A stretch of DNA of 64,000 nucleotides from an uncultured delta proteobacterium (GCA_963811605.1 CAWESA010000006.1:837-64836); one strand, 5' to 3'; counted from the stretch's first letter, positions 8,651-42,211 are shown. Notes: generated by a model from the letters alone, not told the origin. Made by a program: numbers and translations.

Positions 8651-8699
8651 CCGGGACGGGCTCGCCCCGCGCGCAGCCGGGCGAGACGTGGTGCTGGTG

Positions 8700-10577: not shown

Positions 10578-10581
10578 CGGG

Positions 10582-11568
10582 TCAGGCTCCCTGCGCGCGC
10601 AGCGCGGCGGCGGACGGCCGCCCCTTGCCAGCGAGGAGGAGCAGCCCCAGAGCGGTCCAGGCCACTTCCCGAACCCGGCGCACCAGGGCCAGGGACAACC
10701 CGGTGGCGCCACTCAGGCCGAGCGCGAGGAACGTGGCGACCGCACCGCCCTCCTCGACCCCCACGTCCGTCGGCAAGAAGAACGTCGCGAAGCTGATGCC
10801 CGTCGCGAAGGCCTCGATGATCAGCGCGGTGGTCATCGAGACCGCCGCGCCGAGGAGGTAGAGGATGAGCCAGGCCTCCGCGGCTCGTGCGATCCAGCCG
10901 AGGAAGTTGCACGCCAGCGACAGGGCCAGCCGTCGCGGCTGGCGCCGGTAGAAGCTGACGAGCGCCTGGTCGACGTGCGTGGCCGCCTCTCCCAGAGCGG
11001 CGCCGCCCGAGAAACCGAGCCGACCGAGCAGCCCGTAGCCGCCGGCCACGATCCCCCGCATCTGCACGGCGACGAACCCGGCGACGCCGATTGCCTCGAG
11101 GAGGAGCAGCCACTCCATGACGCGCACGAGCGCCACGGACGGCGAGACCGTCAACCGCGCCAGCAGGATTCCGAGCAGGAGGAAGAGCCCCTGCGACGAC
11201 GTGCTGGTGGTCTGGACGATGATGAGCGACGAGACCGTCTCGCGAAGCCTCACCCGATCGCGGAGCATCCACGCCATGACGCCGTGACTGCCGATCACGC
11301 CGGCCGGTATCGTCGAGGCGATCGCCTGCCCCGCGAGGACGGCCCTGGCGAGCGAGAGGAACGGCACCCGGTCGGTGGGGAACGCGTACCCCCACGCGAG
11401 GGTGTCGAACATCTTGAGGACGAGGCACGGGAAGACGATCACGACGAGGAGCCGCCAGGAGAGCACCTGGAACGAGGCCAGCACCGTCGCCGGTCCCATG
11501 CTGAGGATGAGATACGCGAGCAGCGCCGCGCCGCACACGAGCATTGCGGCCCGATATCCTCGGGCCAT
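10582..11568 (-). CDS. Lysylphosphatidylglycerol-synthase TM / flippase-like (UPF0104) membrane protein
   Basis: Multi-TM protein with P..VGVEEGG and LVRRVRE motifs; translationally adjacent to the asnB-like gene. Confidence 0.75.
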   Translation of the reverse strand: MARGYRAAMLVCGAALLAYLILSMGPATVLASFQVLSWRLLVVIVFPCLVLKMFDTLAWGYAFPTDRVPFLSLARAVLAGQAIASTIPAGVIGSHGVMAWMLRDRVRLRETVSSLIIVQTTSTSSQGLFLLLGILLARLTVSPSVALVRVMEWLLLLEAIGVAGFVAVQMRGIVAGGYGLLGRLGFSGGAALGEAATHVDQALVSFYRRQPRRLALSLACNFLGWIARAAEAWLILYLLGAAVSMTTALIIEAFATGISFATFFLPTDVGVEEGGAVATFLALGLSGATGLSLALVRRVREVAWTALGLLLLAGKGRPSAAALRAQGA

Positions 11569-12106
11569 CACGTGGTCGCGTCGGCACGGCACACGAGCCG
11601 CCGTCCCTGCTCCTCGGCGAGGGGCCCGACGGACTCCGTCGCCTCGGTGCTGAGGACGGCGAGGCCGACCGTCGTCCTGCCGGTCCCCGGGTGCCGGAGG
11701 CTGCTTTCGACACCGCTCAGCGTGCCGAGGTGCTCCGCCAGATCCGCGAGCCTTTCCGTCTTCTTCGGCGCATCGAGCATGCCGTCTCGGTCTGCCTCCG
11801 GCGCCTCCAAGCAGGGGGGTAGCACCACGGCGAGCGCTTGATCGTCCTCGACCACGAGTAGTCTCGTCGGTGGGACGCTTCGGGGCGTGCTTCGCGACAC
11901 CGCCGCGACTCTAGAACGAGGCTCGTTAAACCAGCATGAAGCCACCAGGGTTCCCTCCCTTCTCGGAAGGCGAACTCCTCCGCCGAAGGCTACCGGCGGC
12001 GCTGGTCCCGCTTCGGGGTCAGGTTTCCGGCAGGTCCTCGCCGCGGGGAATTCCGTGAGCATCGTGCGGCGGGGTCGCCGGGCCGCCCTAGCCCAGCGTC
12101 GGCGCG

Positions 12107-12916
12107 TCATTTCTTGAGGCAGACCGGTCCCAGCTCCGCCGGCGCTCGCCCTCGACGGGATGCGCCCGCGTCCGCACCGCCGGTCGAGAACCAGCGGGTG
12201 TTCTTCCGGGTCGCCCGCAAGGCGAAGTAGAGCACGAGGCTCAGTCCCGAAAGCGCCAGAAAGGTCGAACCGCGAGGCTCCACACGGCCCCGGACGACCC
12301 AGTCGCAGGCGAGCACGATCAGCGTGATCACCACCACGACCTGGGCGAGCGTCGCGCTCTCGCTGGCCAGGACCTTCTTGACCGAGAAGGCGCGTCTGGG
12401 CGCGCGCCAGCGGCGCAGGGCGGGGATGAATGCCGGCGTGGCAGCCGCCCACCCGCGATAGCGAGCACCGAAGCAGCCATCCAGGAACGCTTCCTCGGCG
12501 ATGATGATCCGCTCGTAGTAGAGCCAGAAGCCGAGCGCGACGACGGCGGTGAGCCACCAGACCTCCACCATGGAAACCGCCCCGATGATGATGAGGAGGT
12601 TGCCCAGGTAGAGCGGGTGCCGCACCACGGAGTACACACCGCGAGTGTTGAGGGACAGAGCTCGTTGCGCTTGGGAGTTTCGCCCGGACGTCCCGGGCGG
12701 GCAGTAGCCCACCACGAGACAGCGAATGGCGAGGCCGGCCAGCGCGATCGTGATGCATGCCGCCCCCCACGCCGTCTCTACAACTTGACCGAAGGTCCGC
12801 TCCAGGCCTTCCGACTGGCCAAGGGCCAGGACGACGAGCGGGACGAGGACCAGCGGCAGGTGGTTGCGATAGCGGAACAGCCAGTGGCCGTTCCGTTCCA
12901 TTTCGCGAATCAGCAT
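12107..12916 (-). CDS. Isoprenylcysteine-carboxylmethyltransferase-family membrane methyltransferase, LmtA (lipid A phosphate methyltransferase)-like
   Basis: WLFRYRNHLP, GTSGRN, LNTRGVYSVVRHPLYLGN, YYERIIIAEEAFL, W...TPAFIP motifs. Confidence 0.8.
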   Translation of the reverse strand: MLIREMERNGHWLFRYRNHLPLVLVPLVVLALGQSEGLERTFGQVVETAWGAACITIALAGLAIRCLVVGYCPPGTSGRNSQAQRALSLNTRGVYSVVRHPLYLGNLLIIIGAVSMVEVWWLTAVVALGFWLYYERIIIAEEAFLDGCFGARYRGWAAATPAFIPALRRWRAPRRAFSVKKVLASESATLAQVVVVITLIVLACDWVVRGRVEPRGSTFLALSGLSLVLYFALRATRKNTRWFSTGGADAGASRRGRAPAELGPVCLKK

Positions 12917-13032
12917 GCGACGATGCTTTAGCGGATATCCGGGTACCTGTGCATCTCGAACCATGAGCCGCCGCCCGGGCGACGAACCAGCGCAGGACGA
13001 GCGCGTTGCCGGCGACGGCGGCGGCGAACGCT

Positions 13033-13512
13033 CTAGTCCCCGAGTCGGTGGTTCCTGTACACGACCTGCCCGTCCGGTTTGACGCGCATCTCGAACCCGC
13101 CACCACCGGCGCGCTCCACGCTCGCCTCGTAGGCGATGACCCCGCGCCGCTCGGTGATCGACTCCACCTTCCGAATCGTTCCCTTGCCTGCGATCTTCTC
13201 GAAGACCGCCTTTGCCGGGGCAGGGACGCTCTCGAGTGCCACATCTTCCTCGATCTCCGAGACGGCGCCACTCGCGTCGACGGTGACGTCGCGGCTGTGG
13301 CCGTCGACGACGAGTTCGATCTCATAGCGCGTCCTGCCCCCCTCCACATCTTTCGAGAGACCGTGCATGGTGGCGCCCCGGCTCTGCGCCTTCACCACCT
13401 CCTGAACCGCGGGAGGGAGGTCTGTCATCTGCACCGGGGTCTCCGCCCGTCCGGGCAGCACGGCGGCCAAGACCGCGGCGACGGCAAACGTCGTTGTGAG
13501 TCGCTGGTTCAT
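13033..13512 (-). CDS. Secreted PepSY-like (two-repeat) protein
   Basis: Signal peptide, LPPAVQ.. and VPAPAK.. repeats, YEIEL/YEASV and DVTVDASG/KPDG strands. Confidence 0.75.
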   Translation of the reverse strand: MNQRLTTTFAVAAVLAAVLPGRAETPVQMTDLPPAVQEVVKAQSRGATMHGLSKDVEGGRTRYEIELVVDGHSRDVTVDASGAVSEIEEDVALESVPAPAKAVFEKIAGKGTIRKVESITERRGVIAYEASVERAGGGGFEMRVKPDGQVVYRNHRLGD

Positions 13513-13591
13513 CGGGTTCCTCGATGGCGCGGGCCTCGTAGATCCGGCGAATTGCCGGATGCGTGAAGCGTAGCCGGCCGGCGGTGAAGGC

Positions 13592-13632
13592 ATCGTGAAG
13601 CGAACGCGCTGGGACCGGCATCGCTTCACGAT
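13592..13632. repeat. Perfect 12-bp inverted repeat ATCGTGAAGCGA / TCGCTTCACGAT (17-nt loop)
   Basis: Read directly at 13592-13603 and 13621-13632, between the DUF1329 stop and the PepSY start. Confidence 0.7.
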
Positions 13633-13853: not shown

Positions 13854-15155
13854 CTAGTCGGTCATGCGCGTGAGCGTTCGCAGCGAGAAGTAGTTCGGAT
13901 CCCAGTTCCGCTCGATGAACGACGACTGGTAGCGCCCGCCCAGCGCGGCCCGGTTCGTCTTGTCGTTCACGCCGATCACGAAGTTCGGGTAGACCGCCGA
14001 GTAGTCGGAGCCGGACTCGACGAAGTGATACCCGCACGCGGCCGTGTAGAAGTACTCGCCCGCCCGGTTGTGCACGAGCTTCCAGTAGATGCGGTAGATG
14101 TCCTTGTCGAAGTACATGATGACCTTGCCGAAGTTGTAGTACGGGTCGGTCGACTGTCCCTCGACGATCCACACCTGGCGGGGCACGAACACGACGTTGT
14201 CCTGCAGCCACCACGGGGCGCCCTTGCTGCCAGGCTTCTCGTAGGCCGCCGAGGCGTAGGGCGTGCTCACCGTGAAGCGCGACTTCGAGTCGGGCGACGG
14301 CGTCATCGAGAACGGCGTCGGCTTGATCACCGGCGCGAGGACGCTGCCTTCGCCGACGAGCTTCCACTTGTAGTACTCGATCTTCCCGGCGTAGCAGTTG
14401 AGATCGTCGGCGAAGATGTCCATGCCGGCGACGGGATCGGAGCGCGAGGCGGCGTTGATGCGGCGGGCCCGGCGGGTGCTGGGGACGTACGCCCAGATGG
14501 CGTCCTGGCTGTCCCAGTCCCAGTAGCGCTTGGTCAACGTCGACACGCCCTCGACGTCCTGCGGCTCGATGGCGCCCCCGATCCCCTGACCGGACAGGTT
14601 GTCGGGATTGCTCTCGATCTTGCCGTCGAGCCGTCCCTGGTAGCCCATGGCGTGGATGAACGCCTTGACGCGACGGAACTCGCCATTCGTGTCCACGCCG
14701 TTCAGCGTGAAGGTCGCGCCGCCACCGCCACCCTGTGCGCCGGCGAAGGCGAAGTTCTGCGCGATCTTGCAGGCGACCTGCGGATCGCTCTTGTCGATCT
14801 TCGGGAACGGCAGGCCGGCGATGAAGTCGGGAATCTTGCCGGTCGACTTGTCCTTGATGCCACACGTGTCGGGGTCGAGCTCGTACTTGCCCTCGTTGGC
14901 CGCGGTGAGGTCCCAGAACTTCTTGGAGTAGTTTTCCTTGAACTTCGCCGGATCGACCGGAACCACGTTGAACCAGTACTGGCCGTCCTTCAGACGCTTC
15001 AGGACGGGATCCGGCAGCAGGTCCTTGCCCTCCTGCCAGTTGTTGGCGTCCAGCACCCACGGCTGGTCGTCGGATGCGGCACGCACCCGGGGTGCGCTCG
15101 CGAGAATCAACGCACCGGCGATCGCCAGCAGCGGGTAACGAAACGTCTTGACCAT
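13854..15155 (-). CDS. DUF1329-domain periplasmic/lipoprotein-sorting-like protein
   Basis: Signal peptide, GLPFPKID, WAYVPSTRRARR, RSDPVAG.D...DD, W.VEG...DPYYNFGK...Y.DK motifs. Confidence 0.88.
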   Translation of the reverse strand: MVKTFRYPLLAIAGALILASAPRVRAASDDQPWVLDANNWQEGKDLLPDPVLKRLKDGQYWFNVVPVDPAKFKENYSKKFWDLTAANEGKYELDPDTCGIKDKSTGKIPDFIAGLPFPKIDKSDPQVACKIAQNFAFAGAQGGGGGATFTLNGVDTNGEFRRVKAFIHAMGYQGRLDGKIESNPDNLSGQGIGGAIEPQDVEGVSTLTKRYWDWDSQDAIWAYVPSTRRARRINAASRSDPVAGMDIFADDLNCYAGKIEYYKWKLVGEGSVLAPVIKPTPFSMTPSPDSKSRFTVSTPYASAAYEKPGSKGAPWWLQDNVVFVPRQVWIVEGQSTDPYYNFGKVIMYFDKDIYRIYWKLVHNRAGEYFYTAACGYHFVESGSDYSAVYPNFVIGVNDKTNRAALGGRYQSSFIERNWDPNYFSLRTLTRMTD

Positions 15156-15211
15156 TGGACCTCCTGGCACTCGGTGGAGCGCACCTGATTCGCGCGCTTG
15201 CGTGGTTCTTG

Positions 15212-15745
15212 TCAAGGCTGCGCGACAGCGTCACGAGCCGAACGGAGCTTGTCGAGCTCCCAGCGGAGCAGCGCGCCGACGAGCAGCACCTCGGAGCGAC
15301 CGGAGCGGCGCGCGTAGCTCCCCGTCCAGGCGGGATTGCGCTTGCCGATGTCCATGGCGAGCAGCTCGGCGCCCGTGCCATCCAGCACGCGCAGGCGTTC
15401 CGTGACGGGCGCCAGCCCGTACTGTGCGTAGTCGATCGGCCCGTCCGAGAGCACCGCATGCGGGTGCAACGACGCCAGCGCGTCGAGCGCGACCTCGACG
15501 ACGTCGTCGGGCCAGCGATGACCCGCCGCGTCGTGCCAGCCCCCGGAAGTGCGCACGAGGGTGAGACGGTCCGCATCGCGCTGCCATTCGACGCGCGCCA
15601 CCGCCGTGATCGGCGCGTCGAGCAGCGCCGGCGTCTCGGGCGTGGGCAGCGGTCGTTCCGGCACCAGGGGCGCGCGATCCATCAGCACCACGACCAGCAG
15701 CGCCGTCGCCACGACGAGCAGGCCGAGCGTCCCGCGCACGGTCAC
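15212..15745 (-). CDS. DUF4340-domain protein
   Basis: N-terminal TM anchor, YGLAP and IGKRNP motifs; GTG start overlaps the upstream stop (GTGA-type coupling). Confidence 0.7.
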   Translation of the reverse strand: MTVRGTLGLLVVATALLVVVLMDRAPLVPERPLPTPETPALLDAPITAVARVEWQRDADRLTLVRTSGGWHDAAGHRWPDDVVEVALDALASLHPHAVLSDGPIDYAQYGLAPVTERLRVLDGTGAELLAMDIGKRNPAWTGSYARRSGRSEVLLVGALLRWELDKLRSARDAVAQP

Positions 15746-17085
15746 GCCGTGCGTCTCCGACGCAGCGCGACGACGAGCGCGCCGATCGCTAGCAGCGTCG
15801 TGGGCACCACGCATGCCGCCCAGAAGACGGCGCGCGCTTCCCGTGCCGTCAGGGCGAGCGTCGAGAAGGCCCCCGAGGAGCCCGGGCGCTTGCGCGAGGC
15901 GGTGAGCGCCTCGTTGCCCCGTGCGGCCACCTCGGCGGCGAGGAGCAGCAGGTCGCGATTGCCGAGGACACCGAGCTGGAGATTGGTGGCGAAGTCGGCG
16001 TCGCCGATCACGACCACGCGCCCGTCGCGCCCGTCCGGAGCGGCGACCCGCACCAGCGCGGAGAGCGGCAACGGTCCGGCGCGATCCACACCCGGACGGA
16101 AGCTCCGTGCCGCCGGCGCGGGGCGCCCGCCGGCATCCGCCCACGAGGTGTCGTCGGTCACCGCGAGATACGCGCCGTCCATGCCCGGCCGTGCCTCGAG
16201 CCGCACGCTCTGGGCGACGGGCAGCAGCGCGCCGGCGACGGGCTGATCGGGCACCAGCTCCGCGTTCACCTCCGCGACGCGGGCGGACAGCCCGTCGGCG
16301 CCGAACAGGGTCGCGCGCTCGTCCACCACCACGTCGTTCTCCAGGATGATGCCGAAGCGATCGAGCAGGCTGGCCACGGAGCGGGGACCGGCCGGATCCG
16401 CCAGCACCAGCAGCCGTCCGCCGCCGCGGACGTAGGCGTCGAGCGCATCGACCTCGGCGGGCAGGAGGTCGCGGCTGGCGCCGGCCAGCACCACCAGCCC
16501 GGCGTCGGGCGGGAGGTGCGCCGCCCCGGGCAGCGGGCGGACGTCGAAGCCGTCGGCGGCGAGCGCCGCGGCCGCGTCGGCCCAGCCGCCGCGCCGATCG
16601 CCGTCGCGCGTGTCCGGCTCGCCGTGTCCCTGGAGCACGTAGGCGATGGTGTCGGCGCGCCCGCCGACCGCGAGCAGCGCGCCGGTCAGTGTCTCCTCGT
16701 TGACGGGATCGACGCGCTCGCGCCGCCCCTCCGACTCGAGCACGACCACGTTGTAGTTGCTGACCCCGAGTCGCTCGGCCTCGCCCGGGCTGCGATCGAG
16801 GTCGAGCATGCGGACGGTGAACGATGGCTGCGCGTCCTGGTAGAGCGCCAGGAGATCCTCGATCTGTCGACGGATCGCCTGCTCCTGTCCCGACGTGAAC
16901 GCCGTCGCCGTGACCGGCGCGTGCATGTGGCCGAGCACCTTGCGCGTGTGCGGTGCCAGCGTGAGACTGCGCTCGGGCGTCAGATCGAGGCGCGCGGGGT
17001 GGCGACCGGCGATCACCAGCAGGCTGGCGAGGATGGAGGCGACGGCGAGCACCTGCGCGGCGAGCAGCGCCACCGCCCGGATCAC
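15742..17085 (-). CDS. GldG-like ABC transporter auxiliary periplasmic component
   Basis: RLDLTPERSLTLAPHT, YVLQGHGE, GGRLLVLADP, RVVVIGDADF, NRDLL motifs; N- and C-terminal TM helices. Confidence 0.85.
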   Translation of the reverse strand: MIRAVALLAAQVLAVASILASLLVIAGRHPARLDLTPERSLTLAPHTRKVLGHMHAPVTATAFTSGQEQAIRRQIEDLLALYQDAQPSFTVRMLDLDRSPGEAERLGVSNYNVVVLESEGRRERVDPVNEETLTGALLAVGGRADTIAYVLQGHGEPDTRDGDRRGGWADAAAALAADGFDVRPLPGAAHLPPDAGLVVLAGASRDLLPAEVDALDAYVRGGGRLLVLADPAGPRSVASLLDRFGIILENDVVVDERATLFGADGLSARVAEVNAELVPDQPVAGALLPVAQSVRLEARPGMDGAYLAVTDDTSWADAGGRPAPAARSFRPGVDRAGPLPLSALVRVAAPDGRDGRVVVIGDADFATNLQLGVLGNRDLLLLAAEVAARGNEALTASRKRPGSSGAFSTLALTAREARAVFWAACVVPTTLLAIGALVVALRRRRTA

Positions 17086-17825
17086 GACACGCCTCGCCAG
17101 TTGCGCGCCTCGAGGGCACGGAGCGCCAGGAACAGAAACAGCGTGATGAAGGCGACGAAGTACGCCACGTCCCGGCTGTCGATGGCGCCCTGGGCGAAGC
17201 CGTAGAAGCGATCGAAGAGTGACAGCGCCATCACGAGCGGCGCCACGCGGGCGCTGAGTGCCGCCTCGTTCCACGCCAGGAACCACGACAGCACGAGGAC
17301 CCCGTAGGTGAGGAGCGCGCTGACGCCCTGGCTGTCGGTCACGGCGGATGCCGCCAGCCCGCAGGCGATGAACGCGGCGCCGAGCAGGACCATGCCCGCG
17401 TACCCGGCGAGCAGCGGGCCGGGCGGGAAGGGATGCATGCAGTAGAGCACCGCCGGCCCGATGAGCGTCGGCAGCAGCATCGCGCCGTACGACAGGAGAG
17501 CCGCCAGGAACTTGCCGGCGACCACGTCGCGATCGCGCACCGGGAACGTCCACAGCAGCTCGAGCGTGCCGAGCTTCCGCTCCTCGGCGAGGAGCCGCAT
17601 GGTCACGAGCGGCACGACCAGCATCGCGACCATGCGGAAGTCGAGGAACATGTAGCGCCAGAGGCCGCTGCCGAGGTTCGCGCCCCCGAAGAGGACGTAG
17701 AACGTGAGGTCGCTGTAGAAGAAGTAGCCCGTGAGGAGCGCGAACACCGCGCCCAGCACCCAGGCGAGCGGGCCGCCGAACATCGAGGCCAGCTCGCGGC
17801 GTGCGATGACGAGCGCCTTCCTCAT
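17082..17825 (-). CDS. ABC-2 type permease (GldF-like)
   Basis: IARREL, PLVTMRLLAEERKLGTLELLWTFP, VAGKFLA, DSRDVAYF motifs. Confidence 0.88.
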   Translation of the reverse strand: MRKALVIARRELASMFGGPLAWVLGAVFALLTGYFFYSDLTFYVLFGGANLGSGLWRYMFLDFRMVAMLVVPLVTMRLLAEERKLGTLELLWTFPVRDRDVVAGKFLAALLSYGAMLLPTLIGPAVLYCMHPFPPGPLLAGYAGMVLLGAAFIACGLAASAVTDSQGVSALLTYGVLVLSWFLAWNEAALSARVAPLVMALSLFDRFYGFAQGAIDSRDVAYFVAFITLFLFLALRALEARNWRGVS

Positions 17826-18766
17826 CCCGCTCGCTCCGGTGGCGCGACGAGCGCCCGGAACGCCTCCTCGAGCGATGCCTCGACCGGCGAGAGCGCATGG
17901 AGCGGCCAGCCGGACTCCGTCACGCGCGCCGCCAGCGCGGCCCGGAGGTCGGCGCCGCGCTCCGCCTCGACCCGGCAACGGGCGTGGCCCGCCGCGGCTG
18001 GCAGGCGCTCGACGCGCCGGACGCCGGGCACCGTCGCGAGCAGCGCTTCGAGCGCGTCGGGCGGGGCGGCGGCGTCGATGTCGACCACGGCCACCGGCCG
18101 CAAGCGCTCCGCGAGCTCCGCGGGCACACCCTCGGCCAGCATGCGGCCGCGGCGCAGGACGACGACCCGATCGCACAGCGTCTCCACGTCCGCGAGCGCG
18201 TGGCTCGACACGAAGATGGCGTGGCGCGCGCCCAGGGAGCGGATGAGCCGTCGCATCTCGGCGCCCTGCGTGGGATCCAGCCCGGCAGTCGGCTCGTCGA
18301 GGAGGAGCGCATGCGGATCGCCCACCAGCGCCACCGCCAGCCCGACGCGCTGGCGGGTGCCGCGCGACAGCACGCCGATGCGACGGTCGGCCAGGCCCCC
18401 GAGCCCGGTGTGCTCGAGGGCGCGCTCGACCGCGTCCCGCCGCCCGGGGGCCGGTACGTCGCGCAGCGCCGCGACGTAGCCCAGCTCGGCGCGGACCGTC
18501 ATCTCGCCGTGCAGCGCCGGGTGCTCGGGCGCGTAGCCGAGGAGGCGCCGCGCGGCGAGCGGATCGCGGGCGAGATCGTGGCCGTCGATCAGCGCCTGGC
18601 CGCGGGTGGGAGGAAAGACGCCCGCCAGCACGCGGAGCGTCGTGGTCTTGCCGGCTCCGTTGGGCCCGAGGAATCCCACCACCTCGCCACGCGCGACGCG
18701 CAGCGAGACGTCCTCGATCGCCGTGCGCCGGCCGAAGCGTTTGGTGAGGTTCCGGGCCTCGATCAC
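17822..18766 (-). CDS. ABC transporter ATP-binding subunit (GldA-like)
   Basis: Walker A GPNGAGKT, LSRGTRQRV signature, Walker B LLLDEPT, SSH switch. Confidence 0.92.
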   Translation of the reverse strand: MIEARNLTKRFGRRTAIEDVSLRVARGEVVGFLGPNGAGKTTTLRVLAGVFPPTRGQALIDGHDLARDPLAARRLLGYAPEHPALHGEMTVRAELGYVAALRDVPAPGRRDAVERALEHTGLGGLADRRIGVLSRGTRQRVGLAVALVGDPHALLLDEPTAGLDPTQGAEMRRLIRSLGARHAIFVSSHALADVETLCDRVVVLRRGRMLAEGVPAELAERLRPVAVVDIDAAAPPDALEALLATVPGVRRVERLPAAAGHARCRVEAERGADLRAALAARVTESGWPLHALSPVEASLEEAFRALVAPPERAG

Positions 18767-21318
18767 CCGACGGCCAGCTGCGCCGGCTCGCCTTCCACCG
18801 CACGCACCGGCCGGTGGGTCAGGAAGCGCGGCCGGACCACCTTCATCCATGCCGGCACGAGCACGAGACCGCCGAAGGTGTTGAACACCATGAGCAGGGC
18901 CAGGAGCAGCCCCATCTCGGCCTGGAACTTCAGGTTGGAGAACCACCAGAAGAGCGTGCCGGCGAGCATCGTCGTGGCGGTGAAGATGATGGCCTTGCCG
19001 GTGGTGGCGGTGGCGTAGTCGACCGCCTCGTCGAGGTCGCGGCCTTCGTCGACGGCGTCGATCATGCGACTGAAGTGATAGATGCCGTAGTCCACCCCGA
19101 CTCCGGCGCCGGCGGCCGCGATGGGCAGCGAGTTCACGTTCAGGTCGATGTGCCAGAGGTACATGAACGCCTCGCAGGCGAGCTGGGAGAGGATGACGGG
19201 GATCATCAGGAGCAACGTCGCCACCACGGATCCGTAGGTGAAGTAGAGACAGAGCGAGACGGCGATCATCACCATGACGAGGGTGGTCCAGTACGAGTCC
19301 TCCACCGCCTCGTTCACCGCCGCCAGCACGCCGAACAATCCGCCTGCCAGGAGGAACTTGACGCCCTCCTTGCTGTTGGCGGCGGCCCACTGCTTCGCGC
19401 TGTCGATCGCGTTCATGATGATGTCGTGCGAGTAGCCGTGGAACAGCGTGATCACCGTGCCATAGCGCATGTCGGTGGACATGAAGCGGTCGAGGTCGCC
19501 GGCCGAAGACGTCTGGGTGAACTGGTAGAACAGCTCCGCGATGTACTTCTGCTTGTCGGGGATGAACGACCACTTCGGCTCGCCCTCGCGGAAGAGCCGC
19601 GACAGCTGCTTCAGGATGTCGACGATGGTGACGGATGCGCCGGCGCCCTCCACCGACTCCATGTGATCGGCCAGCTCCTCCATCGTGTTCAGGGGAGTGA
19701 CGTTCTTCATGCCGTCCGGCTTGCCGGTGTCGGCGATGACGACCAGCTGGTTGGCGCCCTCGAACTTCTCGTTCAGCTTGGCATAGGCGATGTTGTACGG
19801 GTGGTCGGGGAAGAGCAGCGCGGCGCCCGGCGTCATGTCGCCGACCTTGAGCCGCCAGCCGAAGTACGGGCAGACCAGGTAGAGCACGATCGTCAGCAGC
19901 ACGCCCGCCCAGCGGCGCCAGCCGTTGCTCGCGGCGATCGTCCACACGGTGAGGTTGCGGTAGATCGGCTCCTGGTAGCGATAGAGCAGGAAGGCGATCA
20001 CCAGCACGGCGGCGACGCCGGCCGGGTGGAGCAGCTTGGACGAGAGCCAGATCGCGTACCCGAAGAACACCGCCGCGACGATCGCGAGCGTCGTGTGCCC
20101 GAGCAGCTTGGCCCACCCCGGATAGCTGGTCTTCGCGCCCGGCGGGTTCGTCGCCGACAGGATGATGGGATGGAGGGTGACCACGCTGATGATGATCGAG
20201 ACGATCCAGAAGCTCGAGAAGATGGCGCACTTCTGGATGAGCGGGATGGGTGCGATCGAGACCAGCAAGATGCCGATGCCGTCGGACAGGACCGATGCGA
20301 TGGCGGGCGGGAAGAGGTGCGAGTAGCTCTCGACGATCGCCGTGCGCTTGTCGCCGGTGCGGTGATACTCCTCGTGGTAGCGGTCCATCGATTGCACGGA
20401 GTGCGACAGCGCACGCGCCGACAGGAAGATGGGAATCACCAGCACGAGCGGATCGAGATTCAGCCCGAGCAGCGGGACCATGCCGAGCGCCCAGATGCTG
20501 GAGAGGATGCCCGAGAAGACCGGCACCCACACGCCCGGCCAGCTCCGGAAGTAGTTCCACAGGAGGAAGGTGAGCGCGGCGACGGTGATGACGAACACCT
20601 CGCCGACCTCGGGAACGTAGCGCTGGATCGACGTGTACAGCCACGGGAAGCCGGCGATGTAGACCTTGTGGTTGTCGTCCTCCAGCTGCTTCTGGAGGTT
20701 CGTCATCCGGTCGTACAGGTAGTTGAAGTCGAGCTCCTCTTCCCAGAAGCCCGCCGTCACCAGCGCCGCCGTATCGTCCTCGGAGACGTAGATGCCGCGA
20801 ATGCCCTTCGTGGAGTAGACGGCAAACTTGACGCGCTGGGCGTCCTCCATCGTCCGCGGAACGGTCGGGTAGAATACCTCGCGGATCTGGATCGCACCCT
20901 GGGCGTTGGTGATGCTCTTCATCTTCGGGTGCGCGATGGAGAGGATCTGGTACGGAACGACGCCCCTGGTCTCGACCAGCGCCTTGGTCGCCTGATCGAT
21001 CTTCTGGAGCGTCGTCGGATTGTAGATGTCGCCCTTCTTGGTCTCGATGACCAGCGTGAGGACGTTGGCGCTCCCGAACATGCGCCGGAACTCGTTGTAG
21101 ATCTTGATGTAGGGATGCCCTTCGCGGAGCGTGATCTCCTTGCCGAGAAGGCTGATCTTCAGGGGCCCCGGGTAGAAGTCGAGGAATTGCGGCAGCACCT
21201 TGATGTGGGTGCACTGCCACGCGAAGAACACCGTCATCGCGGCGATGACGAGCGCGACCGAGAGCTGATTGCGGAGCAGGAAGCGGAGGTAGGCTTCGAC
21301 CCAGCGCTTGGGGATCAT
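18763..21318 (-). CDS. RND/MMPL-family transporter (HpnN-like class that accompanies DUF1302/DUF1329)
   Basis: 851 aa with two halves of TM bundles and large periplasmic loops; GAGVGVDYGIY and TGKAII motifs. Confidence 0.9.
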   Translation of the reverse strand: MIPKRWVEAYLRFLLRNQLSVALVIAAMTVFFAWQCTHIKVLPQFLDFYPGPLKISLLGKEITLREGHPYIKIYNEFRRMFGSANVLTLVIETKKGDIYNPTTLQKIDQATKALVETRGVVPYQILSIAHPKMKSITNAQGAIQIREVFYPTVPRTMEDAQRVKFAVYSTKGIRGIYVSEDDTAALVTAGFWEEELDFNYLYDRMTNLQKQLEDDNHKVYIAGFPWLYTSIQRYVPEVGEVFVITVAALTFLLWNYFRSWPGVWVPVFSGILSSIWALGMVPLLGLNLDPLVLVIPIFLSARALSHSVQSMDRYHEEYHRTGDKRTAIVESYSHLFPPAIASVLSDGIGILLVSIAPIPLIQKCAIFSSFWIVSIIISVVTLHPIILSATNPPGAKTSYPGWAKLLGHTTLAIVAAVFFGYAIWLSSKLLHPAGVAAVLVIAFLLYRYQEPIYRNLTVWTIAASNGWRRWAGVLLTIVLYLVCPYFGWRLKVGDMTPGAALLFPDHPYNIAYAKLNEKFEGANQLVVIADTGKPDGMKNVTPLNTMEELADHMESVEGAGASVTIVDILKQLSRLFREGEPKWSFIPDKQKYIAELFYQFTQTSSAGDLDRFMSTDMRYGTVITLFHGYSHDIIMNAIDSAKQWAAANSKEGVKFLLAGGLFGVLAAVNEAVEDSYWTTLVMVMIAVSLCLYFTYGSVVATLLLMIPVILSQLACEAFMYLWHIDLNVNSLPIAAAGAGVGVDYGIYHFSRMIDAVDEGRDLDEAVDYATATTGKAIIFTATTMLAGTLFWWFSNLKFQAEMGLLLALLMVFNTFGGLVLVPAWMKVVRPRFLTHRPVRAVEGEPAQLAVG

Positions 21319-21319
21319 G

Positions 21320-22330
21320 TCAGGAGTTCCTCGTCGTATCGGTTCGTGCGCCGAGCTGCTTCAGGGTCGCGCCGTCCACGCGGAAGACGAGGCCGTCGGA
21401 GCCGACGGCGAGACCGCGTCCGCCCGGCGCGAGCCAGATCGATCGGATCCAGTTGGCGGCGAGCTGGATGGGCAAGGGCTCGATCTGCCAGGTCGCGCCG
21501 GCGTCCTCGCTCTTCAGCACCGTGCCCTGGTCGCCCACGATCCAGCCCTGCTGGCCGCGGACGAAGACGTCGAAGAACGACCGGCCCGAGATGGGCGCCC
21601 GCTCGTGGGTCCACGTCGCGCCGCCGTCCTCCGTGCGCAGGATCACGGAGTCGAGCCCGACCGCGATGCCGTGCGAGGCGTCGGTGAAGCGAATCCCGAA
21701 CAGCGTGCTCTCGATCGGGGCGCTCTGCTGCGTCCAGCTCTTGCCGCCGTCGCTGCTCGCCATGATGATGCCGAACTCGCCGGCGATCCAGGCGTGCTCC
21801 GGGTCGCCGTAGCTCAGCGCGTAGAGATTGACGTCGCCCGGCTCGACGCCCGTGTCGAGCGCGCTCTCCGGCAGCTTCACCTCGTCGGGGACGCGCGAGG
21901 GCGTCCACGTCGCCCCTCCGTCCTCGGTGTGAATCATGGTGCCGAAGTCGCCGGCGCCATGGCCGCGCAGCGGCGTGGGGAACTCGAGCGTGAAGACGTG
22001 ACGCGGCGAGCCGGTGTTCAGCTCGGTCCAGGTGCTGCCGCCGTCCTTGGTGGCATAGACGATGCCTTCCTTGCCGGCGATCCACGCGGTCTTGGTATCG
22101 AGGCAGCTGAGCGCGAGGAAGGGCCGCTTGGTGTGGGCGTCCTGCCGATCCCAGGTCGCGCCGCCGTCGGTGGTGTGGAAGATCCGGCCCAGCTCGCCGA
22201 CCATCCATCCCTCCTGGTCGGTGACGAAGCAGGATGCGAAGAGATTCTGCCGGACCTCCCGCAGGTTCACGGGCTCGGCCCCGGCAACCGCCGCGCAGGC
22301 GACGACGAGCGCGGCGATGAGGAACTTCAT
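21320..22330 (-). CDS. YCF48-like BNR/Asp-box beta-propeller protein
   Basis: Signal peptide; repeated W.VG..G.I..T.DGG.TW Asp-box units; AGGAGG RBS. Confidence 0.9.
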   Translation of the reverse strand: MKFLIAALVVACAAVAGAEPVNLREVRQNLFASCFVTDQEGWMVGELGRIFHTTDGGATWDRQDAHTKRPFLALSCLDTKTAWIAGKEGIVYATKDGGSTWTELNTGSPRHVFTLEFPTPLRGHGAGDFGTMIHTEDGGATWTPSRVPDEVKLPESALDTGVEPGDVNLYALSYGDPEHAWIAGEFGIIMASSDGGKSWTQQSAPIESTLFGIRFTDASHGIAVGLDSVILRTEDGGATWTHERAPISGRSFFDVFVRGQQGWIVGDQGTVLKSEDAGATWQIEPLPIQLAANWIRSIWLAPGGRGLAVGSDGLVFRVDGATLKQLGARTDTTRNS

Positions 22331-22351
22331 GCGGACCCTCCTGGGAATACG

Positions 22352-22366
22352 TGCACATGCCGTGCA
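22352..22366. promoter_or_regulatory. TGCA-N7-TGCA site (TGCACATGCCGTGCA) upstream of the YCF48-RND-ABC genes
   Basis: 21 nt upstream of the YCF48 ATG and just downstream of a TACAAT -10-like hexamer (22376-22381, minus strand). Confidence 0.55.
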
Positions 22367-22591
22367 GACACACAGATTGTACCGCACGGTCAGCTTCCGG
22401 CCTTTACCCGTGCCCGGGTCGAAGTGTCAACGGCGTACCGCGTCAGATGGCACCGATGCGCGGAGGCCTCGTCGGGTTTCAACCGGCACTGTGGATGCTC
22501 CGCGCGGAGCACGCGGCCGAGTGCAGCGAGCGGGGAGCGAGACCCGCCGGGCTTCGCCCGCCGGCGCGAGGGGCGGAGCTCCTCGCTGGAT

Positions 22592-24502
22592 TCAGAACAC
22601 GTACTCGACCTGGAAGCGGATGTTGTCCCTGTCGCGCACCGTGCCGAACTGCTGCGCCGCGACCGACGTCACCGAGGTGTAGTCCACGGTGAACCGGAAG
22701 GGATCACGCACGAGCGTGACGCCGGGCTGGACCACCACCCCGCCCGCCCAGTCGTAGAACATGCCCAGGAAGGGCGCGATGCGACCGCCGGAGTAGGACG
22801 TGGTGATGAGGAGCGTCTGCAGATAGCGGTTGCGCTTTTGCGGGTAGAGGCGGGGCTGGAGCCGGCACGCCCGCGTGCCCGGCCGCGGCTTGGCGGTCGA
22901 GTTCGGGTCCTTGGGGCCGCAGCCGCCGCCGAGGGCGCCGAGGGTGTTGTTCGGGTCGGTCGGGTTGCCGATGATGGCGATCCGCGGGTCGACGGGGAGA
23001 TTCCGGAACGGCACCGGCAGGACGAGATCGTCCGGCGCGTTGAAGACGTGCTTGTAGAAGAACTGCGTGCTGATGAAGAACGTCTGCGTGGGGTTCAGCT
23101 GCCGGATGAAGCGGTTGATGTCGAGTCCGACCGACATGTTGAACGAGTCGCGCTGCAGCACGGTGCCCCACAGCGGCTCCTTGCGTCCGGTCGCCAGGAA
23201 GCGCGGGTAGACGAACGGGTTCAGTCCGCCCTCGGTGTTGTTGAACGCGCGCAGGCGCTTCGTCCCGGGGGTGCCGATGCCGGTCTCGAGCGGGGCGAAG
23301 CTGTCGAAGCTGCTGCCCTTGCCCTGGCGGTTCATCGGCTCGCCGCGGAAGTACGCGAACTCCGAGCGCACGATGGTGTAGAGCGAGGTGATCGGGAAGG
23401 TCATCGAGGTGCCGGTGATCTGCACCCGTGGGTAGCGCTGGATGGCGAGGATCGGGTTGTCGAAGCTGGCCGTGTTGCTTCCGTTCTTCATGCCCGGGAG
23501 CCTGAACTGGATGCCGGGGACGTCGAGGTAGGTGTAGTAGTGCGCGACGTTGAAGGTGATGTCCTTGGCGGTGAAGACCAGTCGCGCGCCGCCGCGGATC
23601 TGCGTGGCGTCGGGCGTATCGACGATGGTCCGCAGCGATTGGTTCGGATACCCGAGACCACCCGGCTCCCAGGGTGACCCCTGAGGAATGCCCGGGTTGG
23701 TCGCGACCCTGTTCCCCTGCGCGGCGAAGCCCTCGAGGTAGGCGTCCTGGAACGGCCCCCACGAACCGAGCTGGTAGCTGGTGCGGGCCATGGCGATCGG
23801 GACGCGGCGTTCGTCGAGCGCGATGAAGAAGCCGCCGAAGCTGTCGTCGAGCGGATTGATGTTGTCGAGCAGCCGGAAGACGTCGGTCTCGCCCCAGGCG
23901 AGCACCTGGCGCCCGACGCGGAGGAAGAACGGACCCCTCTCGAAGTCGAGGTAGGCGAGGAAGAGGCGATTGCGCACGCGCGCGTTCCGCCGCAGCCGGT
24001 CGACGCGCTCATCGATGAAGCGGTTGTCGAGCTTGGGGCTCGTGTTGGCGATCCCGGGGATGTTGACCTTCGGAAAGTCGCCGCGGAACCGCTCCAGGGC
24101 GGCGGTCTGGTGCGTGTACTCGTCGGGACCGATGTCGTACAGCGTCTCGCCCTCGAAGCGGTACTCGAGCGTGTACTTGAGGTTCGTCGGGTCGAGGAGG
24201 CGAAACGGCGCCAGCAGTCCCCGGCTGTTCTTCACCAGTCGGGTGAGGTCGTGGTCGTACGACAGCTGGAGGAAGTAGCGGTTCTGCCGCAGATGCCCGG
24301 CGCCCGAGACGGGATAGTTGAGCGGATTGTCCGAGCCGCCGATGCGCTCCGTGCCCACGCGAACGGCGCTGTACGCCCGCATGCCGAGACGGATCTCGCC
24401 GCGCTGGTCCAGGCTGAGCGCATACGCCGCGCGGGTGCCGAGCAGCGCAACCAGCGCAACGAAGGTCCCGGTCAGAAGCCGTCCCAGACACCGCGGCGCC
24501 AT
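22592..24502 (-). CDS. DUF1302-family outer-membrane beta-barrel protein
   Basis: Signal peptide, LRVGRQVLAWGETDVFRLLDNINPLD motif, C-terminal DRDNIRFQVEYVF. Confidence 0.88.
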   Translation of the reverse strand: MAPRCLGRLLTGTFVALVALLGTRAAYALSLDQRGEIRLGMRAYSAVRVGTERIGGSDNPLNYPVSGAGHLRQNRYFLQLSYDHDLTRLVKNSRGLLAPFRLLDPTNLKYTLEYRFEGETLYDIGPDEYTHQTAALERFRGDFPKVNIPGIANTSPKLDNRFIDERVDRLRRNARVRNRLFLAYLDFERGPFFLRVGRQVLAWGETDVFRLLDNINPLDDSFGGFFIALDERRVPIAMARTSYQLGSWGPFQDAYLEGFAAQGNRVATNPGIPQGSPWEPGGLGYPNQSLRTIVDTPDATQIRGGARLVFTAKDITFNVAHYYTYLDVPGIQFRLPGMKNGSNTASFDNPILAIQRYPRVQITGTSMTFPITSLYTIVRSEFAYFRGEPMNRQGKGSSFDSFAPLETGIGTPGTKRLRAFNNTEGGLNPFVYPRFLATGRKEPLWGTVLQRDSFNMSVGLDINRFIRQLNPTQTFFISTQFFYKHVFNAPDDLVLPVPFRNLPVDPRIAIIGNPTDPNNTLGALGGGCGPKDPNSTAKPRPGTRACRLQPRLYPQKRNRYLQTLLITTSYSGGRIAPFLGMFYDWAGGVVVQPGVTLVRDPFRFTVDYTSVTSVAAQQFGTVRDRDNIRFQVEYVF

Positions 24503-24566
24503 GACTGTCGTCATTCCCCACCTCCGACGCAGGCAGATGAAACACGCTGTCCCGAAAAGCCGCGGC

Positions 24567-24596
24567 TTTATAAGAAGGCATGCGCGAAGGTGTCAA
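24567..24596 (-). promoter_or_regulatory. Sigma70-like promoter for DUF1302 (TTGACA-N18-TATAAA)
   Basis: Minus-strand TTGACA at 24596-24591 and TATAAA at 24572-24567, in an AT-rich patch within GC-rich DNA. Confidence 0.55.
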
Positions 24597-24628: not shown

Positions 24629-25667
24629 TCACCAGGCGCGTGTTGCGCCGATCGCGGGGGTCAGGATGCGCGCCGGATCGATTCCCTGCCGCACCGCGGC
24701 GGCGTGGAAGCGGCGCGGCGGCTCGTCGAGGGGCTCGTCGGTGAGATCGAACGTCCCGTAGTGGATGCCGAGCAGGCGGTCGGCGCGCGCGTCCAGGCCG
24801 GCCTGGAGCGCTTCCTCGGGATTCAGGTGCACCGGCTGCATCATGGCCGGCGGGTCGTAGGCCCCGATCGGCACGGCGGCGAGGTCGAACGGGCCCAGCC
24901 GGGTCCCGATCTCCGCGAACAGGCGGGCGTAGCCGGTGTCGCCGGCGAACCAGAAGCGGCGGGTCGGGCCCGTGATGACCCAGCCGGACCACAGGGTCCG
25001 GTTCATGTCGCCGAGGCTGCGCTGGCTCCAGTGACGCGCCGGGACGCAGGTGATGGTCACCGCGCCGAGGGAGCGCGACTCCCACCAGTCGAGCTCCTCC
25101 ACCACCCCGCCGATGTCCGCGTCGCGCAGGATCTCGCCGACGCGGAGCGGCACGAAGAAGCGCGTGCCGCGGGCAGCCAGCGCCCGCAGCGAGGGCAGGT
25201 CGAGATGGTCGTAGTGCGAGTGGGAGACGACCACGGCGTCGATGGGCGGCAGCGCCGACAACCGGCATGGGCGGCGGCACGAAGCGACGGGGTCCGAGCC
25301 ACGAGACGGGGCTCGCCGTGTCGGACCAGATGGGGTCGGTCAGGATGGTCACGTGGTCCATCTGGACGAGCACGCTGGCATGGCCCAGCCAGGTCACGCT
25401 CGGCGCGCTGTGGCGGGCATTGTCGCGCAGCCAGGCGCCGTCGTTCGGCACCAGGGCGGGCGCTCCCGGGCGGGAGAACATGGCCCCGACGGCCCGGCGC
25501 AGGAAGAAGGGCAGCGTGATCGCCAGGCCCGGGCGCTCGTAGGGCTCGAGGTTGGTGAAGCCGTCGGCGGTGTGGTGGGGCGGGGTGTCCATCGCGAGGA
25601 CCGACCGGGCCTGGGCGGCGAGACCGAGCGCCAGCAGGCACGCGCACGCATGATACGATCGACCCAC
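24629..25667 (-). pseudogene. MBL-fold metallo-hydrolase (NAPE-PLD/RomA-like), split by a +1 frameshift near 25262
   Basis: TWLGHAS..TDPIWS in one frame, SHSHYDHLD, FAGDTGY, PIGAY and IHYGTF in another; removing one G from ATGCCGGTTGTCG restores MPLSALPP. May be a sequencing error. Confidence 0.8.
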
Positions 25668-25728: not shown

Positions 25729-25743
25729 TGCATTCGGACTGCA
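25729..25743. promoter_or_regulatory. TGCA-N7-TGCA site (TGCATTCGGACTGCA), candidate TetR auto-operator
   Basis: Imperfect palindrome 17 nt upstream of the TetR ATG, immediately after a TTGAAC -35-like hexamer. Confidence 0.6.
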
Positions 25744-25760
25744 ATAACTACCGCACGTCC

Positions 25761-26369
25761 ATGGCGCTGGCGTCTCCCGCTCCCCTGATCGTCGACGGCC
25801 GTCTCGCACGCGGCGCCCGCGCCCGCGCCGCCATCGTCGAGGCGCTCCTCGCCCTCATCGAGCGCGGCGACCTGCGTCCGAGCGCGGCGCGAGTGGCGGA
25901 GCGCGCGGGCGTGTCGCTCCGATCGGTGTTCCAGCACTTCAGCGACGTCGAGTCGCTGTTCGCCACCGCCGCGGCGCGGCAAGCGGAGCGCCTGGCGCCG
26001 CTCGTGGGCGCCGCGCCGGACGAGGGACCGCTGCCACGCCGGCTCGACGCGTTCGTCCGCCAGCGCGCCCGCCTCCTCGAGACCGTGGCGCCGGTGCGGC
26101 GGGCGGCCATCCTGGTGGAGCCGTTCTCCGCCGAGCTGCAGGGGCGCCTCGCCGCCTTTCGCGCCCTCAAGGCCGAGGAGGTCCGCCGTGTCTTCGCCGT
26201 CGAGCTGGCGCGGCGACCGGGGGCCGCCCGGCGCCGATTGCTGGCCGCGCTGGTCGCGATCGCGAGCTGGAACACCTGGCAGGCGCTGCGCCAGCACCAG
26301 GGCCTGTCGCAGCGCGAAGCGCGGCGTGTGCTCCACGCGATGCTCGAAGCCCAGCTGCGGAGGAGCTGA
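25761..26369 (+). CDS. TetR/AcrR-family transcriptional regulator
   Basis: RAAIVEALLALI...PSAARVAERAGVSLRSVFQHFSD HTH; stop overlaps the next ATG. Confidence 0.9.
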   Translation: MALASPAPLIVDGRLARGARARAAIVEALLALIERGDLRPSAARVAERAGVSLRSVFQHFSDVESLFATAAARQAERLAPLVGAAPDEGPLPRRLDAFVRQRARLLETVAPVRRAAILVEPFSAELQGRLAAFRALKAEEVRRVFAVELARRPGAARRRLLAALVAIASWNTWQALRQHQGLSQREARRVLHAMLEAQLRRS

Positions 26370-41049: not shown

Positions 41050-41064
41050 TGCACCACGAGTGCA
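41050..41064. promoter_or_regulatory. TGCA-N7-TGCA site (TGCACCACGAGTGCA) between the divergent CoA-transferase and GST genes
   Basis: TGCAC-N5-GTGCA palindrome 19 nt upstream of the GST ATG. Confidence 0.55.
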
Positions 41065-42196: not shown

Positions 42197-42211
42197 TGCA
42201 GTAGAAGTGCA
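42197..42211. promoter_or_regulatory. TGCA-N7-TGCA site (TGCAGTAGAAGTGCA) upstream of the sulfatase operon
   Basis: Overlaps a TTGCAG-N18-TATGGT promoter-like pair; 21 nt upstream of the ATG at 42233. Confidence 0.55.

Follow-up and report, generated by a model that had tools for sequence, protein, structure and literature searches.

Background

To our knowledge, no cargo has been assigned to either of two widespread bacterial envelope systems, namely the quartet formed by a DUF1302 protein, a DUF1329 protein, a Ycf48-like protein and an HAE3-type resistance-nodulation-division (RND) transporter, and the ATP-binding cassette (ABC) systems of the GldA/F/G-DUF4340 type, and we know of the latter only through a gliding-motility phenotype. 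Genes of both kinds occur together in a stretch of 64,000 nucleotides (nt) from an uncultured soil bacterium of the class Binatia (CAWESA010000006.1:837-64836, hereafter referred to as the window), in which eight co-oriented genes on the minus strand (13854-24514) form one chain in the order DUF1302, Ycf48-like, RND, ABC ATPase, ABC-2 permease, GldG-like, DUF4340 and DUF1329. The Binatia, uncultured bacteria that abound in soil, are credited with metabolism of hydrocarbons and with methylotrophy, and the system may matter for their handling of hydrophobic carbon. Comparative analysis of the locus suggests, with chances that we judge to be about even, that a four-part AmeABCD-type RND system and an ABC-2 exporter are co-expressed and functionally tied, both serving one hydrophobic cargo route between inner and outer membranes.

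The genes for DUF1302, DUF1329, BNR (COG4447) and RND (COG1033) proteins are cofit in Shewanella, Kangiella and Pseudomonas and were proposed to export a cell-wall component (10.1101/072470). AmeABCD of Castellaniella defragrans, an HAE3 RND system, is needed for monoterpene tolerance and lowers the accumulation of Nile Red, which indicates efflux (PMC6394551), and a complex of DUF1302 with DUF1329 was predicted by AlphaFold-Multimer with an interface predicted template modelling score (ipTM) of 0.84 (PMC13499233). The Binatia quartet resembles this set in its families, the RND being HAE3-like, and in its envelope locations; the DUF1302, DUF1329/LolA-superfamily and COG4447/Ycf48-like members are all encoded in the locus, as judged by Pfam and signal peptides. 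Plain versions of the AmeABCD type are represented by the unlinked DUF1302-Ycf48-RND-DUF1329 loci of Binatia and by a plasmid cluster of Aromatoleum. However, the order AmeA (DUF1302)-AmeB (DUF1329)-AmeC (COG4447)-AmeD (RND) differs from the Binatia order DUF1302-Ycf48-RND-...-DUF1329, and a four-gene ABC-2/GldG/DUF4340 module lies between the Binatia RND and DUF1329 genes and is translationally coupled to the RND gene. With these ABC genes interposed, the locus does not carry an AmeABCD-type cassette of exactly four genes without a second transporter.

The interposed module has the same four-gene make-up and order as Flavobacterium GldA, GldF and GldG with the DUF4340 'ABC-type uncharacterized transport system' protein, and a standalone form of it is found in many phyla and on contigs C1 and C10 of the same genome. 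It differs in that the Binatia proteins score far under the equivalog cut-offs (GldG especially, 25.5 against 390 bits), the DUF4340 protein is short and single-domain, the module is embedded in an RND operon and no gliding-motility context is seen at the locus, no search for gld/spr genes having been made in the genome, which lies outside the Bacteroidota.

The lipoprotein LppX has a LolA-like fold. Export of phthiocerol dimycocerosates requires MmpL7 and the ABC-2 transporter DrrABC, and LppX takes part in it (PMC11539658). All three classes, an MMPL RND, an ABC-2 exporter with a DrrA-like ATPase and a LolA-like carrier, are encoded together at the Binatia locus, and MmpL7/DrrABC is by analogy the best precedent for a lipid route served by two engines; it differs in serving a mycomembrane, in its genetic layout and in being without GldG, DUF4340, Ycf48-like and DUF1302 proteins, and the likeness would be one of logic rather than of shared ancestry of the whole system. 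Porphyromonas gingivalis (PG1175-PG1181) and Prevotella intermedia carry TetR-ABC-ABC-MMPL-'outer membrane lipoprotein-sorting protein' operons, the genes of which are co-induced 13- to 220-fold under low iron (PMC10434189). These Bacteroidota operons likewise bring a LolA-like protein and an MMPL RND together with transporters that bear ABC ATPases in one repressor-linked operon, but differ by annotation, the sequences not having been compared, in the class of ABC transporter and in being without GldG, DUF4340, Ycf48-like and DUF1302.

No description of the present composite was found in the literature searched, in which none of the reports joins these families with GldG or with Binatia and DUF4340 receives passing mentions only. 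A first-pass annotation of the window had held that the set was not described as a unit; in the searched literature this is correct for an ABC-augmented AmeABCD-type system, which is new there, but pairings of ABC, MMPL and LolA-like proteins are already known (PMC11539658, PMC10434189).

Organisation of the locus and its predicted proteins

The G+C content of the window is about 70%, as a result of which mechanical lists of open reading frames are crowded, and the gene chain was resolved by start-codon mapping and Pfam; the eight co-oriented genes and the families named for them in the first-pass annotation were thereby borne out. The four overlaps of 4 nt that it had described from RND to DUF4340 are all present as read from the sequence, at 18766-18763 (RND/ATPase, GTGA), 17825-17822 (ATPase/permease, ATGA), 17085-17082 (permease/GldG, GTGA) and 15745-15742 (GldG/DUF4340, GTGA), on the minus strand like the genes themselves, and they are conserved in orthologues. 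The Ycf48/RND junction is a 1-nt gap. The DUF1329 gene most likely starts at ATG 15155, because the signal peptide and the N-terminus kept in relatives begin there, and with this start it follows DUF4340 after 57 nt; TTG 15215, which would have given a fifth 4-nt overlap, was dropped in favour of it. A gap of 261 nt separates DUF1302 from Ycf48 and contains the palindrome TGCACATGCCGTGCA (22352..22366, no strand assigned), which lies 22 nt upstream of the Ycf48 ATG and is a candidate repressor operator of an internal promoter. Given this gap and the conservation of the palindrome, the locus may comprise two transcription units, DUF1302 alone and Ycf48 to DUF1329 under a repressor. The earlier picture is hence kept in its genes and amended in the DUF1329 start and in the possible division into two units.

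All eight products are predicted to be envelope proteins, with topologies that would suit an envelope system. The DUF1302 outer-membrane barrel protein (22592..24514, minus strand; PF06980, 4.3e-23, above the Pfam cut-off) has a signal peptide with cleavage between AYA and L and a C-terminal Phe (...EYVF); its start may be ATG 24514, with GGAGG 6 nt upstream, or ATG 24502, and orthologues with 52-76% identity occupy the same position in relatives. The Ycf48-like BNR beta-propeller (21320..22330, minus strand; PF14870, 1.7e-39) carries a cleavable signal-peptidase-I-type signal peptide (cleavage between AGA and EP) that is conserved in orthologues; a lipoprotein assignment from the VVAC motif was ruled out, the N-terminal Cys not being conserved in orthologues. 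The HAE3/MMPL-type inner-membrane RND protein of 851 amino acids (aa) (18763..21318, minus strand; PF03176 (MMPL), 1.3e-31, above the Pfam cut-off) shows the invariant GxGVDYGIYHFSR motif with D743-Y744, and its relatives by sequence in PDB are the lipid exporters MmpL3 (3.5e-13), MmpL4/5 and HpnN. At the distal end of the chain, the DUF1329 protein of 433 aa (13854..15155, minus strand; PF07044, 3.7e-35) includes a LolA_like domain (PF17131, 1.1e-11), has a signal peptide cleaved between VRA and AS, and matches the LolA-like proteins 3bk5 and 9tp6 by sequence in PDB.

Within the module, the ABC ATPase of GldA/DrrA type (17822..18766, minus strand; 314 aa; PF00005, 2e-31) has intact Walker A (GPNGAGKT), signature (LSRGTRQ), Walker B (LLLDEP) and H-loop motifs and a C-terminal extension of about 90 aa. 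The GldF-like ABC-2 permease (17082..17825, minus strand; 247 aa; PF12679, 3e-10) has about six transmembrane segments by hydropathy and no sequence relative among solved structures. The GldG-like accessory protein (15742..17085, minus strand; 447 aa; PF09822 (ABC_transp_aux), PF23357 (DUF7088), PF14258 (DUF4350)) falls within the wider ABC_transp_aux family of Pfam and has the GIFT fold; in its AlphaFold2 model (predicted local distance difference test score (pLDDT) 86) transmembrane helices 2-28 and 414-446 flank periplasmic thioredoxin-like and GIFT domains, and Foldseek paired the model at 1e-9 with OST48/Wbp1 and with the N-terminal domain of IFT52. The short DUF4340 protein (15212..15745, minus strand; 177 aa; PF14238, 3e-7) was modelled (AlphaFold2, pLDDT 93) with an N-terminal membrane anchor (3-22), a periplasmic beta-rich domain and a C-terminal helix, and the M-T-x-R-G-T stretch conserved at its N-terminus starts precisely with the overlapping start codon. 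Foldseek found no PDB fold match to this model at E<1e-3, and nothing was drawn from weak lipocalin, LolA and thioesterase-like rows (E>0.01, TM <0.45).

The best NCBIfam matches of the ATPase are GldA (TIGR03522; 222.4 bits against a cut-off of 402.6) and DrrA (207.8 against 312.5), the permease matches GldF (TIGR03518; 6e-34, 118 bits against 288.5), the GldG-like protein matches GldG (TIGR03521; 25.5 against 389.85, far below), the RND protein matches HAE3 (TIGR00921; 4e-41, 140.8 against 351.9) and the Ycf48-like protein scores 127.6 against the Ycf48 equivalog cut-off of 326. Because all the NCBIfam scores fall below the curated cut-offs, 'GldAFG-like' and 'HAE3-like' are, on sequence grounds, taken to be the correct terms in place of family membership.

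Conservation of the linkage in Binatia

A scan with the RND alignment over 185,579 species genomes yielded 80 loci, all in metagenome-assembled genomes (MAGs) of Binatia type, about 22 of which have the eight-gene order and about 30 the order DUF1302-Ycf48-RND-DUF1329 without the module. In the family of the window, GldG matches lie 2-3 kb downstream of the RND orthologue (60 relatives surveyed), and among the 20 loci fetched the full eight-gene order was found throughout the complete loci of that family and also in a second family (G038, G054). Thus, the position of the ABC module is not peculiar to the window, orthologous loci of two families, a paralogue on contig C12 and other gene orders having come from the synteny survey that the first-pass annotation had called for, and the unique position that this annotation had named as refuting evidence is not what was found. 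Searches with GldG had a narrower reach, a single-protein search giving 2 related loci only and a homologue search close Binatia relatives only (at least 53% identity), with no view beyond the class.

In the tree of the main RND orthogroup three supported clades were obtained, two of which are ABC-linked (21 and 10 rows) and one unlinked (37 rows). The 4-nt RND/ATPase overlap is kept in all 16 loci of the window's clade, whereas gaps of 16-115 nt are found in the other linked clade; overlaps of the same length occur between permease and GldG in 19 of 24 loci, between GldG and DUF4340 in 21 of 23 and between Ycf48 and RND in 18 of 23. Other Binatia orders include Ycf48-RND(-RND)-DUF1302-ABC module, RND-ABC module-DUF1329-Ycf48-RND, Ycf48-RND-ABC module and, in loci without an RND, Ycf48-DUF3108_like-ABC module. 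As Ycf48-like genes and ABC modules share loci without an RND, the propeller can, to judge from gene content, have the ABC engine as its sole partner.

The genome is a MAG of 5.85 Mb in 24 contigs, and a fault of assembly or binning, or else a neutral insertion of recent date that has no functional meaning, has to be weighed at this point. Contig C7 carries a near-identical copy of the eight-gene locus, the window's contig C6 (window 1-49000) and C7:1-44073 (L005, L006) being collinear and 96-98.6% identical with small indels, which reflects either redundancy of strains within the bin or a duplication that is large and recent; this second contig of about 98% identity and a frameshift in a neighbouring gene of the window might be taken as signs of such an accident. 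Against it, more than 20 MAGs that are independent and come from different studies share the order, at protein identities as low as 37-60%; no reading frame of the locus is broken, and its overlaps are conserved. Conservation across many independent MAGs rules out an assembly artefact, and the explanation as a whole has next to no probability.

Several side observations were made on these loci. DUF3108_like genes lie between the Ycf48-like gene and the ABC module in L132 (9185-11203, minus strand) and L138 (2967-4946, plus strand), both without an RND, and in L129 (9003-11286, minus strand), also without an RND, the ATPase gene directly follows the Ycf48-like gene, these loci belonging to Binatia families other than that of the window; a small gene is found upstream in all three, with a weak NTF2-like match only in L129. 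G006 (L011, G006:C1 5824-11056, plus strand) has two tandem RNDs, 84% and 75% identical to the window RND, between Ycf48 and ATPase, and tandem duplicated RNDs inside or beside the cluster are also present in L028, L092 and L043. Some RND orthologues (57-59% identity) stand alone, with no Ycf48, DUF1302 or DUF1329 within 10 kb (L076 9977-12466, L059, L060, L068), next to unrelated genes (for a CoA-transferase, peptidase M3, an amidase and GFA). The NCBI labels of related MAGs (Myxococcales, Limnocylindria, Enterobacteriaceae etc.) conflict with the genome-kinship table and, being unreliable in this respect, were not used as evidence of spread beyond Binatia; L036, L041, L059, L065, L069 and L082 are assigned by that table to the family or class of the window, and the NCBI labels among them name other phyla (Acidimicrobiales, Limnocylindria, Margulisiibacteriota, Terriglobales, Enterobacteriaceae, Alphaproteobacteria).

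History of the ABC module

A tree of 75 non-redundant Binatia modules, inferred from concatenated ATPase, permease and GldG sequences, has four clades, two of which are purely standalone (21 and 7 rows). In the window-type clade (35 rows), the 27 embedded modules form one group (support 96) with three standalone modules as its sister (support 99), and the next branch outward has five modules placed after DUF1302 in loci of the form Ycf48-RND(-RND)-DUF1302-ABC. The sister modules, all three standalone, belong to G029, G037 and G045, exactly the genomes with the plain four-gene RND locus. The fourth clade (12 rows, 9 linked) includes the PDZ-type loci, the RND-ABC-DUF1329-Ycf48-RND loci and the Ycf48-DUF3108-like-ABC loci without an RND. 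The linked or standalone label changes 5 times on the module tree as against 25 times with shuffled labels. Two separate lineages of the module therefore show linkage to HAE3/Ycf48 clusters, in five or more gene orders.

For a view beyond the class, an alignment of GldF-like permeases with a Bradyrhizobium sequence at its head was used in a scan, and the 80 loci obtained came from Latescibacterota, Chloroflexota, Nitrospirota, Rokubacteria, Gemmatimonadota, Myxococcota, Spirochaetota, Bacteroidota and others, a sample that is ranked by similarity and not exhaustive. None of the approximately 70 non-Binatia loci in it has an RND, DUF1302 or DUF1329 gene within 9 kb, which agrees with the first-pass statement that GldA/F/G-type systems usually occur separately, and the only linked loci are the Binatia L194 and L207. 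The two systems are also met singly on proteobacterial plasmids, as Ycf48-MMPL-DUF1302-DUF1329 inside beta-oxidation genes on plasmid 2 of Aromatoleum EbN1 and as lactonase-ATPase-permease-GldG-DUF4340 in Bradyrhizobium, and no DUF1329 was found in the Acidobacteriota genome of L008. The RND-ABC linkage is restricted to Binatia in the samples examined.

Functional significance of the linkage

The insertion of the module inside the quartet, the conserved translational coupling, the long retention, the repeated and independent linkage and the Ycf48-ABC variant, in which the module takes the place of the RND, together favour the reading that the two transporters serve one hydrophobic cargo route; as a comparative pattern, the five are the classical signature of functional association. 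In this proposal, in which we infer the functional coupling, the direction and the class of cargo, a complete ABC-2 module would have entered between the RND and DUF1329 genes in the ancestor of two Binatia families. Ycf48 to DUF4340 would be translated from one message in coupled amounts, under the control, probably, of a repressor acting at the palindrome before Ycf48. The RND engine, driven by proton-motive force, and the ABC engine, driven by ATP, would handle one and the same cargo, hydrophobic or amphiphilic, or would take successive steps in its transport, and the cargo would pass out of the inner membrane through the Ycf48-like, GldG/DUF4340 and DUF1329 proteins to the DUF1302 barrel and on to the outer membrane or the outside.

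Several observations weigh against this proposal. The orthologous ABC module forms a separate operon elsewhere in the genome in G029, G037 and G045, so that operon linkage is not obligatory and the module might act as a transporter on its own. RND orthologues with and without ABC linkage are distinguished by no indel and by 2 fixed substitutions only; no docking signature and no acquired docking surface are seen on the RND. The ABC and RND family matches all lie below the NCBIfam curated cut-offs, the 261-nt gap, which has a candidate operator of its own, suggests that DUF1302 is transcribed separately, and a search for RNA runs containing the locus found none. Paralogous and proteobacterial clusters are situated amid beta-oxidation and other catabolic genes, and Pseudomonas putida mutants fail on fatty esters (10.1101/2020.07.04.188060), both of which fit uptake as well as export.

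The module orthologues that work from a separate operon in G029, G037 and G045 also speak for two independent co-regulated transporters, which would share an operon by way of one regulon (responding, for example, to a hydrophobic stress or substrate) and would have separate cargo and no contact. Such an arrangement agrees further with the standalone state of two of the four Binatia module clades and of all the modules sampled in other phyla, and with linked RNDs that have no structural signature. It accords poorly with a linkage that evolved or persisted in several gene orders and within two distinct clades of modules, with a module inserted within the quartet (between RND and DUF1329) and not beside it, with an RND/ATPase overlap kept without exception in the window's clade, and with the variant of Ycf48, DUF3108-like gene and module without an RND, which points to shared periplasmic partners. 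Independent transporters are a possible explanation, on the unlikely side.

The first-pass annotation had gone further, to a possible single trans-envelope machine. Conserved RND-ABC coupling, the first part of that view, was found; for the single machine, the linkage that is not obligatory and the RNDs without a distinguishing insert speak to the contrary. That the eight proteins constitute one envelope-spanning conveyor with two motors, in which the ABC unit and the RND feed the same Ycf48-like/DUF1329 relay and DUF1302 barrel, appears to us rather doubtful. If it were true, GldG-type ABC systems in general would be extractors of lipids or hydrophobes that dock to Ycf48-like or LolA-like partners, and the GldAFG and DUF1302/DUF1329 families would together acquire a first functional handle; physical coupling of the two transporters, if true, would make the system a diderm counterpart of MmpL7/DrrABC and an instance of a transport route that draws on ATP as well as on proton-motive force. 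The reading of one shared cargo route asks for less, and for it the repeated and long-kept operon fusion in Binatia is comparative evidence that both systems can serve one pathway, with a natural comparative series among relatives in the eight-gene loci, the four-gene loci and the Ycf48-DUF3108-ABC loci without an RND.

Direction of transport and paralogous loci

As the HAE3/MMPL RNDs, like the ABC-2 transporters, are a class that exports or extracts, transport by the shared route is, by analogy, more likely to be outward than inward, and the uptake role proposed in the first-pass annotation is doubtful on the same account. We know of no characterised HAE3/MMPL RND or ABC-2 transporter that imports. 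The paralogous locus on contig C12 of the same genome bears on this question. It has the order Ycf48-RND (with a PDZ insert)-ATPase-permease-GldG-DUF4340-DUF1329, its genes are 26-48% identical to those of the window, and it is followed by a thiolase-like/ChsH2-OB (DUF35-type) gene and then by an acyl-CoA dehydrogenase gene. The PDZ domain (PF13180, 2e-13) is located in the first periplasmic loop of the RND (L001, G000:C12:308000-327000, 7728-10421, plus strand).

Such neighbours would suit an uptake system in which hydrophobic growth substrates (alkanes, terpenes, fatty esters or sterol-like compounds) are captured at the outer membrane and passed inward for catabolism of the beta-oxidation type, as would the position of the Aromatoleum EbN1 quartet within beta-oxidation genes and the exported hydrolase, alpha/beta hydrolase and glutathione S-transferase (GST) genes that adjoin the window locus. 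Phenotypes of the same tendency are the unfitness of P. putida quartet mutants on Tween 20 and butyl stearate (10.1101/2020.07.04.188060) and the poor growth of ameABCD mutants on monoterpenes as the sole carbon source (PMC6394551). On the other hand, the lowered Nile Red accumulation mentioned above indicates efflux by AmeABCD, the catabolic neighbours of the window locus are not kept beyond the closest genera, and HpnN, MmpL3, MmpL7 and the ABC-2 (type V) transporters export or extract their substrates. Taken together, uptake is an improbable role for the locus, and the outward route is preferred.

The genome has further related loci in the form of a plain Ycf48-RND-DUF1329 locus on contig C10 and two standalone ABC-GldG modules, one on C10 and one on C1.

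Regulatory sites and neighbouring genes

A candidate sigma-70-like promoter (24567..24596, minus strand), recognised by pattern match only, precedes DUF1302 and consists of TTGACA (24596-24591), an 18-nt spacer and TATAAA (24572-24567). It is placed in the 115-nt gap that follows the stop codon (24631-24629) of the next gene upstream; the consensus scan had passed over it, since its rule requires T at position 6 of the -10 hexamer. Palindromes of the form TGCA-N7-TGCA, to which the site before Ycf48 belongs, occur four times in the window (22352-22366, 25729-25743, 41050-41064 and 42197-42211) as against 0.55 expected, and may serve a local repressor regulon as operators. Ycf48 is also preceded by such a site in the C7 copy, L030 and L011, and one of the window's sites is upstream of a neighbouring TetR-like gene (25760-26369). 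A search of the locus against Rfam matched no family.

The gene upstream of DUF1302 encodes an exported hydrolase of the metallo-beta-lactamase (MBL) fold (Lactamase_B_2; 24629..25640, minus strand; PF12706, 1e-44 on the C-terminal part) and is a conserved upstream neighbour of the locus in the closest genera. It is frameshifted near 25262 in the window and is a single frame in the C7 copy and in L010, L012 and L038; the frameshift marks either a pseudogene of one strain or an error made in sequencing or assembly. A putative lactonase is reported in the BNR/RND operon of P. putida (10.1101/2020.07.04.188060), and on plasmid p195_1 of Bradyrhizobium sp. 195 (L150, 5188-10974) the standalone ABC-GldG-DUF4340 module has before it an MBL-fold gene of the N-acyl-homoserine-lactonase family and after it HupE/UreJ. 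The association of MBL-fold genes with these loci may be a recurrent one, extending over the window, the Bradyrhizobium plasmid and P. putida.

Of the further neighbours, another hydrolase gene and the GST and MsrA genes are kept in the closest genus at most, and the PEMT/ICMT-like, LPG_synthase_TM and asparagine synthase neighbours are shared only with the near-identical second contig. The latter are situated downstream of the locus (8700-13593, minus strand), where a weak PepSY-like open reading frame, a PEMT/ICMT methyltransferase, LPG_synthase_TM (flippase-like) and asparagine synthase genes look like a set for membrane-lipid modification.

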